Virus record (IMG/VR): IMGVR_UViG_3300045988_003906
Location: 1 to 5,611 of that record
Origin: a virus
DNA: 5,611 bases
Strand: one strand, 5' to 3'
Positions 1,264 to 5,611 of this stretch are shown piece by piece (the stretch's first letter is position 1; each line of letters starts with the position of its first letter). The notes beneath the pieces were generated by a model that saw only the letters and a program-made list of their open reading frames with translations, ran no database searches and was not told the DNA's origin. The position numbers and the translations under genes are program-made.

Positions 1264-1318
1264 ATATTATTATTTTTATTATTAACTTGTTGTAGACGTA
1301 GTAGTAGGGAGTGTTGAA

Positions 1319-1402
1319 ATGTTGAATACTATGAATTTTTATCCTTGGAACGATATTTTTTGGCTAATTTTAATGTTGATACTTTTGTGGAAAACATGTT
1401 GA
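1319..1402 (+). CDS. Candidate 27-aa hydrophobic micropeptide (speculative)
   Basis: Hand translation gives MLNTMNFYPWNDIFWLILMLILLWKTC, with a stop TGA at 1400..1402. AGGGAG (1306..1311) lies 7 nt upstream of the ATG. The ORF sits in T-rich non-coding-looking DNA, which yields hydrophobic codons by composition alone. Confidence 0.2.
   Translation: MLNTMNFYPWNDIFWLILMLILLWKTC
1386..1394 (-). promoter_or_regulatory. DnaA-box-like 9-mer (TTTTCCACA on the minus strand), copy 1
   Basis: The + strand reads tgtggaaaa, whose reverse complement is TTTTCCACA. This fits the relaxed DnaA box TT(A/T)TNCACA. It is embedded in the 21-nt repeat. Confidence 0.35.
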
Positions 1403-1423
1403 ATTGTTGAAAGTGTAGCAATA

Positions 1424-1443
1424 TGCACAAAAACCTTTGTGCA
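1424..1443. other. Perfect 8-bp hairpin between the two 21-nt repeats
   Basis: tgcacaaa (1424..1431), loop aacc, tttgtgca (1436..1443). Confidence 0.6.
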
Positions 1444-1449
1444 ACATTT

Positions 1450-1458
1450 TGTGGAAAA
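1450..1458 (-). promoter_or_regulatory. DnaA-box-like 9-mer (TTTTCCACA on the minus strand), copy 2
   Basis: The + strand reads tgtggaaaa at 1450..1458, in the same orientation as copy 1 and 64 nt downstream of it. Confidence 0.35.
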
Positions 1459-1528
1459 CCTGTTGAAACTGTTGAAACTGTTGAAAAAGCAATTAAAGGC
1501 CGTCCGGCGAGCGAAACCGAGAAGCCAC

Positions 1529-2638: not shown

Positions 2639-3110
2639 CTACAGACAAACCGCAGCGGCATGGCCGACCGAAGCCGGCGAAAGTGTGAGACGTACATACC
2701 TTTGGGAGCGAAACGAAAAAGGCGAAAAAGTACTGAGGCTCGACCAGACAATTGACCAACAAGCGGAAATAAATAGCTACCTAGAAGAAACCAAAATAGA
2801 AAACATCATACGGCGGGCAAGCATCGACCCAAACATTGCAGCGCGAATCGCGCCAGACCTTGGCGGCGGCATCCAAGACTACACCGAGGCACCGCAGACA
2901 CTGGCAGAGCTCCAGAATATCATGATTCGGGCTGAGCAGATTTGGGACGAAGTGCCGAAAGAAACCAAACTCAAATTTGACAACGACGTCGATAAATTTA
3001 TTGCATCGTTCGGCACAGTCGAATGGGCTAAAAATCTGGGCATATATCAGGAAAAACAGACCGAAACCGAAACGGCCAAGGCAACGGAGGCTAAAGAATC
3101 TAAAGAATGA
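2616..3110 (+). CDS. VP3: VP3, internal scaffolding protein
   Basis: I chose the ATG at 2616 (MAYRSVSNY...) because AAGGAG (2600..2605) precedes it by 10 nt. The track's TTG at 2550 and the ATG at 2571 lack an SD. The central/C-terminal region DYTEAPQTLAELQNIMIRAEQIWDEVPKETKLKFDNDVDKFIASF matches the conserved core of Chlamydia-phage-type scaffold proteins. The stop overlaps the VP1 ATG (ATGA at 3107..3110). Confidence 0.85.
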   Translation: MAYRSVSNYRQTAAAWPTEAGESVRRTYLWERNEKGEKVLRLDQTIDQQAEINSYLEETKIENIIRRASIDPNIAARIAPDLGGGIQDYTEAPQTLAELQNIMIRAEQIWDEVPKETKLKFDNDVDKFIASFGTVEWAKNLGIYQEKQTETETAKATEAKESKE

Positions 3111-4792
3111 ACAGAAACAAAGATGCAGGATTTAACCAAGTTCCGCGGCTGGACATCACGCGAAGCCGCTTTAAAAGACGGCAAGACGTCAAACTAACGC
3201 TAAACGCCGGGCAACTTATCCCGTTTTATGTCGATGAGGTGTTACCGGGTGACACTTTTAGCATTGACCAAGCGGCGATTATCCGCATGACAACGCCCAT
3301 CTTTCCAGTCATGGACAACTGTTACATGGACATCTATTATTTTTTCACACCTAACCGGATTTTGTGGAAAAACTGGAAAAGATTTATGGGCGAGAACGAC
3401 AAAGGGCCGTGGGCACAAGAACAAGAATATACCATACCGCAAATCGCATGCAAAGACGGAACAGAACAAAGCCCCCTGCCAAAAGAAGGAAGCATCCTTG
3501 ACTACATGGGCATACCGACAAAAGTAAACAAAAGTACAGAAACACAATTTTACATCAATGCACTACCCGTTAGAGCTTATGCCATGATTTGGCAAGAGTG
3601 GTTCAGAGACCAAAACGTAGACAATCCAGCAATTATCTCAACCGAAGACGCAACAGTGGACTACACAGACGATGTAAATAAAGGCATGGACGGGAAAACA
3701 CCGGACATTGATTACATTCTTCAAAACGCATATAGAGGCGGCAGACCTTTGCCGGTAAATAAGTTTCACGACTACTTTACCTCAGCGTTGCCGAGTCCGC
3801 AGAAAGCAGGAGAATCAATAACAATCCCAATGGGCGGAAAAGCCCCGGTAATCGGATACGAATATAACAGCAACACGAAAACGCCAGGCAAATTAAATTT
3901 TGTAACTCATGTCGGACAAAATTCAACCATCGAAAATACCGAAGAAGGACCGCTACAGCTGAACGCCTACGTAATCGAAGATGGAAATTACTATTTCGAA
4001 AGCATGGACTTGTTCACAGACATGAGCAAAGTAAGCAGTACAACCATCAACCAGCTGAGACAGGCTTTCCAGGTACAAAAATATTACGAACAGTTAGCAC
4101 GAGGCGGAAGCAGATACCGCGAAATGATTTATTCGCTGTTCCACACAAAAATTAGCGATAAAACAGTACAAATCCCGGAATATCTGGGCGGAACACGCCT
4201 TACAATCAACATGAGTCAGGTAATCCAGACCAGCGGAACAACAGCTGAAAGTCCGCAGGGCAACACAGCAGCAATAAGCGTTACGCCATACAATGGGCAC
4301 ATGTTTACGAAAAGTTTCGAGGAGCACGGCTACGTTATAGGTGTATGTTGCATCCGACACGACCACACCTATCAACAGGGGCTCGAAAGGATGTGGAGCC
4401 GTAAAACCAATCTAGACTTTTACTATCCGGTGTTCGCAAATCTGGGCGAACAAGCAATTCTCAAGAAAGAAATCTATCTAGGCGACACGAAGACCAACGA
4501 AGAGGCATTTGGATACCAAGAAGCATGGGCAGAATACCGAATGAAGCCAAACCGAATCTGTGGCAAATTCCGCAGCAACGCAACGGGAACGCTTGATAGT
4601 TGGCACTATGGTGACAACTACGATAAGGTACCAACCCTAAGCCAAGCATGGATGAAGGAGGGAAACTCTGAAATTCAGAGAACTCTCGCAGTAGACAACG
4701 AACCACAATTTATCATGGACACGGTCATTGACAACACCAGCGTAAGACCCATGCCAATGTACAGCATTCCGGGTCTCGTTGACCATCACTAA
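3107..4792 (+). CDS. VP1: VP1, major capsid protein (Microviridae F-like jelly-roll)
   Basis: 561 aa. The N-terminus FNQVPRLDITRSRFKRRQDVKLTLNAGQLIPFYVDEVLPGDTF is a hallmark of gokushovirus VP1. It is the longest ORF, sits in the canonical position after VP3, and is translationally coupled to it. Confidence 0.97.
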   Translation: MNRNKDAGFNQVPRLDITRSRFKRRQDVKLTLNAGQLIPFYVDEVLPGDTFSIDQAAIIRMTTPIFPVMDNCYMDIYYFFTPNRILWKNWKRFMGENDKGPWAQEQEYTIPQIACKDGTEQSPLPKEGSILDYMGIPTKVNKSTETQFYINALPVRAYAMIWQEWFRDQNVDNPAIISTEDATVDYTDDVNKGMDGKTPDIDYILQNAYRGGRPLPVNKFHDYFTSALPSPQKAGESITIPMGGKAPVIGYEYNSNTKTPGKLNFVTHVGQNSTIENTEEGPLQLNAYVIEDGNYYFESMDLFTDMSKVSSTTINQLRQAFQVQKYYEQLARGGSRYREMIYSLFHTKISDKTVQIPEYLGGTRLTINMSQVIQTSGTTAESPQGNTAAISVTPYNGHMFTKSFEEHGYVIGVCCIRHDHTYQQGLERMWSRKTNLDFYYPVFANLGEQAILKKEIYLGDTKTNEEAFGYQEAWAEYRMKPNRICGKFRSNATGTLDSWHYGDNYDKVPTLSQAWMKEGNSEIQRTLAVDNEPQFIMDTVIDNTSVRPMPMYSIPGLVDHH

Positions 4793-4837: not shown

Positions 4838-5611
4838 ATGGGACTTTTATCAGCAGCACTACCAATACTTAAATCAATAGCACCATCAGTAATAAGCTGG
4901 GGCATAAATAAACTCCTAGGCGGCAACATGGCAGAAAGCAGCGGAGGAAGCCAACAGCACAACGAAAGCTCAAGCCAAGGAGGCGGTTACAGCAACAGCG
5001 CCAGCGGCGTAAACAGAGACCAAAACTTACAAGACTGGAATAGTATGCTCGGAGCAATCCAAGCAAATATGCAAAGTCAACAGAAATTTAACCGCAAAAG
5101 CATGTTTGAACAGATGGGTTATAACACCATGGCAGCAATCACTCAGGGAGTATACAACCAAATAAGCAACAACGCGGCAATGAGCTACAACAGCGCCGAA
5201 GCGGCAAAAAACAGAGCTTGGCAAGAACAAATGAGCAACACAGCATACCAAAGAGCCGTAGCCGATATGAGAAAAGCAGGAATCAATCCTATTTTAGCAT
5301 ATCAGCAAGGCGGGGCAAGCACACCGGGTGGAGCACAAGCAACAATCAGCGGAGCGAGTATGGGACTTGCAAGCAGTAGTGCGGCAAGCGCAAGTGCTCT
5401 AGGAGTAAGCCAGAACCACAACAACACATGGAGCAAGAGCGAAAGTAACTGGTACAACGCAGCACAAGCGGTCGGAGACGCGACAAGCTGGCAACACACA
5501 AGCGCAGACAAGGCATTCAACGAATTCAAGGACGTCTTTAACAGCCTCAGCAGTCTAAGCACTGGCACAGGAGGGGCGGGAAGAAAACCGGGAAGAAAAC
5601 CAAGCAAAGAT
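4838..5611 (+). CDS. VP2: VP2, minor capsid / DNA pilot protein; open at the window end and completed at 1..130 (282 aa in the circle)
   Basis: The ORF is not in the supplied track because it has no stop before the window end. Hand translation of all 258 codons to 5611 found no stop. It reads [29 protein letters not shown]... with the conserved core [31 protein letters not shown] typical of gokushovirus VP2. It also has Gly/Ser/Gln/Asn-rich tracts and lies in the canonical position after VP1. The unique part ends at 5556. Confidence 0.9.
5557..5611. repeat. Terminal redundancy, copy 2 (identical to 1..55)
   Basis: See 1..55. The sequence is redundant and not an extra genomic repeat. Confidence 0.95.

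Follow-up and report, generated by a model that had tools for sequence, protein, structure and literature searches.

Results

The DNA analysed here (the window, 5,611 nt of IMG/VR virus record IMGVR_UViG_3300045988_003906) is one circular gokushovirus genome of 5556 nt, in which positions 1–55 are repeated at 5557–5611, and its nearest GenBank records are gut gokushoviruses of human, monkey and pig. Every gene in it lies on the + strand. A 500-nt non-coding stretch runs from the end of the gene for VP4, the replication initiator, to a promoter with a 12/12 match to consensus at 1595–1622, and it holds the subject of this work: a cassette of ~230 nt (1261–1487) made up of an AT tract, the sequence TTGTTGTAG-ACG-TAGTAGTAG, a 4-nt G-rich spacer and ten TGT(T/G)GAA boxes, which has a counterpart in bacterial chromosomal origins (oriC). 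The features are as follows.

1261–1286, +: AT-rich tract ending AAC (from the sequence; Tandem Repeats Finder, ATT repeat 1261–1284)
1287–1307, +: trinucleotide track TTG TTG TAG ACG TAG TAG TAG
1308–1311, +: spacer GGAG, 4 nt, last trio to first box
1312–1328, +: proximal tandem pair of boxes, TGTTGAAAT and TGTTGAATA (slots 25 and 33), 8 nt apart
1374–1413, +: box cluster B, TGTTGATAC at 1374, TGTGGAAAA at 1386, TGTTGAATT at 1397 and TGTTGAAAG at 1405, with spacings of 12, 11 and 8 nt
1424–1443, +: perfect 8-bp hairpin TGCACAAA-AACC-TTTGTGCA, stem 1424–1431 with 1436–1443
1450–1487, +: box cluster C, TGTGGAAAA at 1450, TGTTGAAAC at 1461, TGTTGAAAC at 1470 and TGTTGAAAA at 1479, with spacings of 11, 9 and 9 nt
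131–1150, +: VP4, replication initiator (phrog_942, 5.8e-111)
1651–2640, +: small genes including VP5 (phrog_1670)
3107–4792, +: VP1
From 4838 across the circular junction, +: VP2

Ten boxes of one class beside a trinucleotide track

A preliminary description of this DNA had recorded iterons together with two DnaA-box-like 9-mers, and the repeats themselves are real. Eight TGTTGA(A/T) copies stand in one orientation (1312, 1320, 1374, 1397, 1405, 1461, 1470 and 1479, all +); the 9-mer CTGTTGAAA is present as three exact tandem copies (1460–1486); and a 21-nt repeat pair (1383–1403 and 1447–1467, 95% identity, 64 nt apart) carries TTTTCCACA on the − strand of both copies (1386–1394 and 1450–1458). 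The perfect 8-bp hairpin and the upstream AT-rich tract are likewise where they had been placed. TGTTGA(A/T) occurs 12 times in the window against 2.06 ± 1.33 expected, and TTWTNCACA four times against 0.55; none of 200 shuffles reached either count. What did not stand was the division into two kinds of site. TGTGGAA at 1386 and 1450, overlooked in that description, are copies of the same repeat, giving ten TGT(T/G)GAA slots at offsets of 25, 33, 87, 99, 110, 118, 163, 174, 183 and 192 nt from TTGTTGTAG (1287). All ten form one class: homologous slots exchange T for G at position 4, and the canonical TGTGGATAA occurs in slot 99 of some relatives.

Also overlooked was TTGTTGTAG-ACG-TAGTAGTAG at 1287–1307, 4 nt 5′ of the first box. 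Its complementary strand, CTACTACTAC, has TnnT repeats, and the pattern TAGTAGTAGNNNNTGTKGAA matched once in the window and in none of 200 shuffles. The AT tract that adjoins these trios is presumed to be a DNA-unwinding element.

Folded as a single strand, 1261–1490 is no better than shuffles (z = +0.59) and the boxes are unpaired. The sole stable stem in the cassette, 1424–1443, contains no full box, its 3′ arm overlapping a conserved box-like TGTGCAA at 1437–1443. Such lack of excess single-strand structure fits a duplex protein-binding site. Other kinds of content were also considered. An Rfam scan (E-value threshold) gave only a chance miRNA match, outside the array, and a tRNA scan found no tRNAs, so that a structured RNA or tRNA was rejected; no promoter scoring at least 9/12 lies within the array; and coding of a small protein was rejected, as frames and box spacing vary between clades.

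The cassette is conserved and moves as a unit

The array is conserved among related genomes: of 80 relatives selected by VP4 protein alone, 61 had enough sequence to assess, and all 61 carry the cassette, with at least five same-strand boxes within 200 nt. In total it was seen in ~140 microvirus genomes, at VP4 identities from 34 to 100%. BLAST with the spacer region retrieved ~50 GenBank gokushovirus records, many of which have no other nucleotide similarity to the window. The ten box offsets are invariant in ~60 relatives whose VP4 is 43–96% identical, including those at 43–57%, and the sequence between boxes is variable.

Information content was calculated from 53 dereplicated sequences for the trinucleotide track and box statistics from 64 dereplicated cassettes. 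The cassette maximum, 1.87 bits per position, falls in TTGTTGTAGnnGTAGTAGTAG, compared with ~1.6 in the boxes and 0.6–0.9 in the spacers; immediately upstream it drops to 0.12. Relatives keep a short TATAT-rich run that abuts AACTTG on its 5′ side (1.14 bits over −12 to −1), and the trio-to-box spacer is 4 nt long throughout the phage cassettes. The 594 box calls from the ten slots yield the consensus T-G-T-(T 0.84/G 0.16)-G-A-A-A; C and A both stand at 0.00 in the matrix at position 4, the per-slot counts showing one of each. G at this position is concentrated in slots 25, 99 and 163. Slot 25 is TGTGGAAAA in 21 of the 64 cassettes, and slot 99 (1386) is TGTTGAAAA in 31, TGTGGATAA, an exact canonical DnaA box, in 11, TGTGGAAAA in 8 and TGTGGACAA in 1. 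Because slot 99 alternates among these four sequences, a single reader would accept all the box types.

The 1424–1443 stem is clade-specific, because TTTGTGCAAC is conserved 13 nt ahead of slot 163 and its pairing partner is not; in the 56% clade, CGTCAAAATGACG lies a few nucleotides upstream in place of that partner. Separately, in the clades of L086, L088, L089, L094, L124 and L135 an inverted G-type box comes after the last box, TGTTGAAAACT-caa-AGTTTTCCACA; the resulting 10/11-bp palindrome, which does not occur in the window, would bring a DnaA box into a hairpin stem whichever strand is folded.

Among 140 anchor-bearing microvirus genomes, the cassette lies forward and downstream of VP4 in 117, inverted at that position in 7, and inverted between VP2 and VP4 in 16; these last form the clade with VP4 ~35% identical, in which the cassette is 70–390 nt upstream of VP4. 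Since both orientations and two genome positions occur, the cassette is a self-contained element. Inversion of the cassette in L070 and L080 has left the orientation of its neighbours unchanged, namely the post-VP4 hairpin, the GC-rich palindrome and the promoter downstream. Taken with the lack of excess folding, orientation independence points to a duplex protein-binding element that functions independently of any particular strand or neighbour.

The gokushoviruses of cultured hosts, Chp2, phiMH2K and SpV4, have no cassette, and PLSDB plasmids show no similarity to it. In large viral contigs, matches to the anchor pattern were discarded as low-complexity runs without nearby boxes, probably coding repeats. 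Six IMG/VR contigs of 8–160 kb labelled viral (L326, L328, L329, L334, L337 and L341) carry canonical unwinding modules with 6–10 boxes nearby, for example aaaatatataat...GTAGTAGTAGGGGC-TGTGGATAA-TGTGGATAAG; dnaA was undetected in the fetched stretches of these contigs, and the modules may be phage or phage-plasmid origin modules, or bacterial contamination.

The same module lies between dnaA and dnaN in gut Clostridia

A single scan of bacterial sequences for three closely spaced TGTTGAA gave 120 matches, mostly simple tandem repeats (Bacteroidota and others), together with irregular arrays in Oscillospiraceae, Ruminococcaceae, Ruminococcus and Clostridiales assemblies. Four of these arrays lie between Pfam-confirmed dnaA and dnaN, and upstream come jag, yidC and rnpA; two further genomes found through DnaA homologues brought the set to six; the flanking genes were confirmed by Pfam (Bac_DnaA, 1e-63 to 5e-70; DNA_pol3_beta). 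In all six dnaA–dnaN spacers, that is, in chromosomal oriC, an AT run, TAG trios, a G-rich spacer, tandem boxes and further box clusters follow one another in the order seen in the phage. The oriC-style architecture that had been proposed from DnaA boxes and an AT-rich block is supported by this match, the same module recurring in these Oscillospiraceae/Ruminococcus origins. The spacers read as follows.

L227: atatatgttTAGTAGTAGTAGTAGGGGG-TGTTGAAAC-TGTTGAAAAC
L276: GTAGTAGTAATAGGGGG-TGTTGAAAC-TGTTGAAAAC
L244: TAGTAGTAGTAGTAGGGTA-TGTTGAAAC-TGTGGAAAAG
L249: TAGTAGTATTAGTAGTGG-TGTTGAAAA-TGTTGAAAAG
L343: GTAGTCGTAGTAGGGGGG-CTGGAAAC-TGTGGAAAT
L345: TAGCAATAGCAGTAGGGGGG-ATGGAAAC-TGTTGAAAC

The trio tracks are TAGTAGTAGTAGTAGG in L227 and L244, GTAGTAGTAATAGG in L276 and GTAGTCGTAGTAGG in L343, and the gap from trios to box is GGGG in L227 and L276 and GGTA in L244. 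Relative to the trios, TGTTGAAAC-TGTTGAAAAC holds the same position in bacterial oriCs as the proximal pair does in the phage, and a G-type box followed by T-type boxes at 11 nt, as in cluster C, is also found in bacterial oriC (for example, TGTGGAAaaccTGTTGAAaacTGTTGAAaac in L244).

TGTTGAA reaches a density of 19–32 per kb in the spacers versus 0–1 per kb in their flanks. The dominant box in most of the six is TTTTCAACA; the canonical TTATCCACA is scarce or absent, and two spacers lack it even within one mismatch. There have to be DnaA boxes in an origin next to dnaA, and no other abundant candidate is present, so we take TTTTC(A/C)ACA to be the DnaA box of the lineage. By the same token, the phage ‘iterons’ would be DnaA boxes of the host lineage, and that DnaA binds them is, in our informal estimate, quite likely to be right. 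The boxes TTTTCAACA and TTTTCCACA may represent an undescribed lineage-specific dialect of the DnaA box; the literature that we searched nowhere names TTTTCAACA as a DnaA box. Because the cassette version of the phage matches theirs, gut Oscillospiraceae/Ruminococcaceae are its probable hosts.

DnaA itself differs in this lineage. Its domain IV has RDHSTIVY versus the RDHTTV(L/I)H of E. coli and B. subtilis, with P423 replaced (E. coli numbering), and the C-termini of all six proteins are also without R405-P406. The RDHSTIVY and P423 differences fall at what we take to be base-contacting positions. Base-contacting residues of DnaA are conserved in Firmicutes with canonical boxes and different in Thermotoga, whose box differs (PMC7561715). 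A tie between these residue changes and the T-type box is suggestive only.

Agreement with the basal unwinding system

The basal unwinding system (BUS) of bacterial oriC is laid out as an AT-rich region, trios, a short G-rich gap and boxes in the TGTGGAnAA orientation (PMC8287927, PMC6669920), with a GC-rich gap of ~4 bp between trios and box (PMC8287927). The DnaA-trio is 3′-GAT-5′, that is, 5′-TAG-3′ (PMC8287927), and the B. subtilis recognition element for DnaD is 5′-CTACTATTACTTCTACTA-3′ (PMC10201434). Pelliciari et al. (2021) define a BUS by a box with at most two mismatches to the species motif or to TTATCCACA, at least three consecutive NAN trios 0–16 bp from that box, with strand and side dictated by how the box is oriented, a second tandem box with at most four mismatches, and an AT-rich unwinding region beyond the trios.

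By sequence, the phage cassette has every one of these elements. Its proximal box (1312–1320) is the complement of ATTTCAACA, one mismatch from the lineage motif TTTTCAACA; TAG TAG TAG at 1299–1307 lies 4 nt from it, the strand reading 5′-trios-TGTGGAnAA-3′; the second box (1320–1328, TGTTGAATA) is the complement of TATTCAACA, again one mismatch from the lineage box; and 1261–1286 is AT-rich, the shorter TATAT run being kept in relatives. The status of the lineage box derives from its dominance in dnaA–dnaN spacers. In the 21 of 64 relatives whose proximal slot is TGTGGAAAA, one mismatch from the canonical box, the same definition applies with the canonical box itself.

In the order and polarity of its elements the cassette resembles B. 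subtilis incC (DnaA-box#6/#7 and trios), C. difficile oriC2 and the Oscillospiraceae/Ruminococcus spacers; the phage order agrees with the published trio sequences, which are the complement of CTACTATTACTTCTACTA in B. subtilis and of CACCTACTACTATTACTACTATGA in C. difficile, and E. coli R1 has the same trio/box order. With the Oscillospiraceae/Ruminococcus spacers it also shares the box variants TGTTGAAAA and TGTGGAAAA and the 11-nt step from G-type to T-type box, and a TnnT-rich trio complement is likewise common to the phage and these chromosomal systems. Unlike bacterial oriC, it sits not beside dnaA/dnaN but on a 5.56-kb single-stranded DNA (ssDNA) phage with its own HUH initiator, in either orientation and at two genome positions; it is compressed, with ten boxes in 176 nt; and an extra invariant AACTTGTTG stands 5′ of its trios.

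A candidate DnaA-driven origin on the replicative form

On balance, we favour the view that 1261–1487 is a compact phage-borne BUS of oriC type, through which DnaA would open the replicative form for VP4-independent replication or maintenance. Host DnaA-ATP would fill the ten same-orientation boxes (TGT(T/G)GAAA, the complement of TTTTC(A/C)ACA) on the double-stranded replicative form, and the proximal pair at 1312–1328 would guide a DnaA oligomer onto the adjoining trio strand (1287–1307). The AT tract (1261–1286) would then melt, with opening predicted over 1261–1300, and the exposed strands could recruit host helicase loaders, the TnnT-rich trio complement resembling the DnaD recognition element. 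In this way the duplex form would be replicated or maintained by DnaA independently of VP4, whose rolling-circle synthesis would supply the strands that are packaged.

Several points weigh against this view. Recognition of TTTTCAACA by DnaA is deduced solely from its dominance in dnaA–dnaN spacers; most of the bacterial genomes are metagenome bins, and motif similarity is the sole basis of the host assignment. The proximal box of the window (1312–1320) has three mismatches to canonical TTATCCACA, and the spacing of the proximal boxes is 8 nt in the phage, giving a one-base overlap of adjacent 9-mers, versus 9 nt in bacterial origins. L343 has the same DnaA motif and mostly G-type boxes, which makes the link between residues and T-type box loose. 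AACTTGTTGTAG is more invariant than bacterial trios and could have a second, phage-specific reader such as VP4. Finally, it is not evident why a phage equipped with an HUH initiator should require another system of initiation.

The chief rival is a DnaA decoy, in which the cassette binds DnaA without firing and the high-copy replicative form titrates DnaA-ATP, halting or delaying host initiation, or links phage development to DnaA status. Ten host-type boxes per genome, and the indifference of the cassette to orientation and position, would suit such a sink, and B. subtilis incC plasmids do inhibit chromosomal initiation (PMC6669920). Titration needs boxes alone, however, yet the trios are the most conserved part (1.87 bits), spacer length and AT run are kept, and box offsets are fixed to the nucleotide, which implies an ordered complex acting on adjacent DNA. 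We therefore regard a decoy as unlikely, if still the best of the alternatives.

We give distinctly less credence to a rolling-circle double-strand origin, with the repeats as binding sites for VP4 (HUH) and a nick at the conserved AACTTG/TTG; VP4 binding had been among the earlier suggestions for the array. Models for such an arrangement are the pMV158-type bind locus, the iterons of CRESS-DNA viruses and the phiX174 nick site CAACTTG/ATA. VP4 is a replication initiation protein, every microvirus needs a nick site somewhere, and AACTTGTTGTAG is nearly invariant and not in bacterial origins. The repeat, however, does not co-vary with VP4, its sequence being constant over 34–100% VP4 identity; bacterial oriC, which has no VP4, contains the identical repeat, trios and spacer; and slot 99 can be a canonical DnaA box. 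Inversion of a nick site would switch the packaged strand, but skews at fourfold-degenerate sites are equal in forward and inverted genomes (AT 0.535 versus 0.554, GC 0.049 versus 0.067), a weak test, the coding strand being A-rich everywhere. The phiX174-type origin occupies 30 nt inside gene A, CAACTTG/ATATTAATAAC, with no boxes or trios. VP4 belongs to the gene A protein initiator family, and the hexamer AACTTG (1284–1289) is all that the cassette has in common with the phiX174 nick sequence; unlike that origin, the cassette lies between genes, and the bases that follow AACTTG are different. The other candidate is ACTTGATA, the complement of a hairpin loop at 1164–1201.

Marginally less probable again is regulation by DnaA as a transcription factor, the array tuning the promoter at 1595–1622, or VP4 where the cassette lies upstream of it, by the level of DnaA-ATP. 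The 12/12 consensus promoter is ~110 nt downstream, and in the clade with VP4 ~35% identical the cassette stands 70–390 nt ahead of VP4. Against this, the promoter stays put while the cassette is inverted or moved, repression has no use for trios or an AT tract, and, to our knowledge, DnaA-regulated promoters use far fewer than ten phased boxes.

A DnaA-dependent complementary-strand origin, the first role that the preliminary description had offered, has DnaA boxes on the packaged strand nucleating a DnaA/DnaB/DnaC-type primosome, as at A-site hairpins. At the A-site (ssiA), a DnaA box in a single-strand hairpin stem assembles the ABC primosome on ssDNA. The phage is like it in having DnaA boxes on a replicon with a single-stranded stage, and in the clade with the cassette upstream of VP4, and in L089, the last box and an inverted G-type box form the 10/11-bp hairpin with a duplex DnaA box. 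That terminal hairpin is confined to some relatives, however; in the window no box lies in a duplex stem and the fold of the cassette does not exceed shuffles, so that it does not qualify as an A-site. The boxes are direct repeats found in both orientations relative to the genes (inverted in 23 genomes), and strong structure lies in the flanks instead (1151–1262, z = −3.73). We consider this role very improbable.

Other origin and binding-site types were set aside. The theta origins of pSC101, F, P1, RK2 and R6K depend primarily on a plasmid Rep bound to 17–22-bp iterons, with few auxiliary DnaA boxes. Like plasmid and phage-plasmid theta origins, the phage is a mobile replicon that would recruit host DnaA by boxes beside an AT-rich region; unlike them, its only repeat class is the DnaA box (unit 7–9 nt) and trios are present. 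No relative of an iteron-binding Rep was found among the five scanned proteins (ORF65, ORF73, a basic 39-aa protein, VP5 and VP4), VP4 being the only initiator, and with that and the 7–9-nt unit an iteron-type theta replicon was rejected. Binding by the orphan proteins, also raised earlier, does not agree with their distribution: ORF65 occurs in 7 of 28 close and 2 of 72 other cassette genomes and ORF73 was undetected in most distant cassette clades, so that neither is co-conserved with the array, and neither has a PHROG match. The 0A-box of Spo0A is TGTCGAA, and a Spo0A array was rejected because C stands at position 4 in just 1 of 594 calls; WalR/PhoP-type direct repeats, also considered, were dropped upon the oriC match.

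Neighbouring elements

A 12-bp hairpin at 1164–1201 lies directly 3′ of the VP4 stop. Its stem co-varies among clades and its loop is constant across them, CTATCAAG(T/A)AAG; the complement of the loop, ACTTGATA, exactly matches the phiX174/pC194 nick sequence in its core. In the clade with the cassette upstream of VP4, a comparable GGTGTCA-stem-loop lies between cassette and VP4 in gene orientation. This hairpin may be where VP4 binds or nicks, or no more than the terminator of VP4.

Next to it, 1221–1262 is a GC-rich palindrome of alternating purine/pyrimidine, (CG/CA)n, with an exact 13-nt direct repeat, CGCACGCGCACGT, at 1228 and 1246, and most relatives have a similar tract flanking the cassette at one end or the other. 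The palindrome might adopt a Z-DNA or cruciform structure or serve as a single-strand origin. Its − strand contains GCGCGTG, which we take to be the Lactococcus Chi sequence.

Beyond the cassette, an imperfect GC-rich hairpin at 1529–1568 (GTCATGC...GCATGAC) is conserved at nucleotide level even in relatives otherwise little alike (for example, H20), and its orientation is unchanged where the cassette is inverted. The region 1574–1627 holds a perfect TTGACA-16 nt-TATAAT promoter preceded by A/T-rich sequence, and over ~50 nt is 85–91% identical to Enterococcus phage sequences, probably by convergence on the Firmicutes consensus promoter. This promoter and the AGGAGG-type ribosome-binding sites fit a Firmicutes host. 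Further on, an exact 19-nt tandem duplication, CAAAAAGCCCGAGGAATAA, spans a small-ORF stop codon (2036–2074). At fourfold-degenerate sites of the coding strand, the window and ~140 related genomes have A>>T (AT skew ~+0.55) and a GC skew near nil; phiX174 is T-rich, the opposite of this A excess.

Discussion

In textbooks, Microviridae exemplify replication by a phage HUH nickase with host elongation factors, and the literature that we searched has no report of iterons, DnaA boxes or trios in the family. A chromosomal-type origin module on a rolling-circle ssDNA phage would accordingly be new, as judged from its sequence. This large clade of tiny ssDNA phages had been thought to need only its own rolling-circle initiator; a conserved chromosomal-type initiator module in ~140 microviruses implies a second, DnaA-dependent step that has so far been overlooked. 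The cassette also gives a sequence-based host prediction for an uncultured clade, and it draws attention to an apparently unrecognised DnaA-box dialect (TTTTCAACA) in one of the main groups of gut Clostridia, whose DnaA domain IV shows corresponding changes.

More tentatively, and with the odds somewhat against it, this large gut gokushovirus clade may maintain or replicate its double-stranded DNA form as a DnaA-fired minichromosome, by means of a captured or convergent host oriC module, and use VP4 rolling circle for packaging only. If so, the dialect of boxes and trios would be a readable host signature, here of Oscillospiraceae/Ruminococcaceae with a DnaA that recognises TTTTCAACA, and microviruses regarded as ‘lytic’ would have a plasmid-like carrier state coupled to the host cell cycle.

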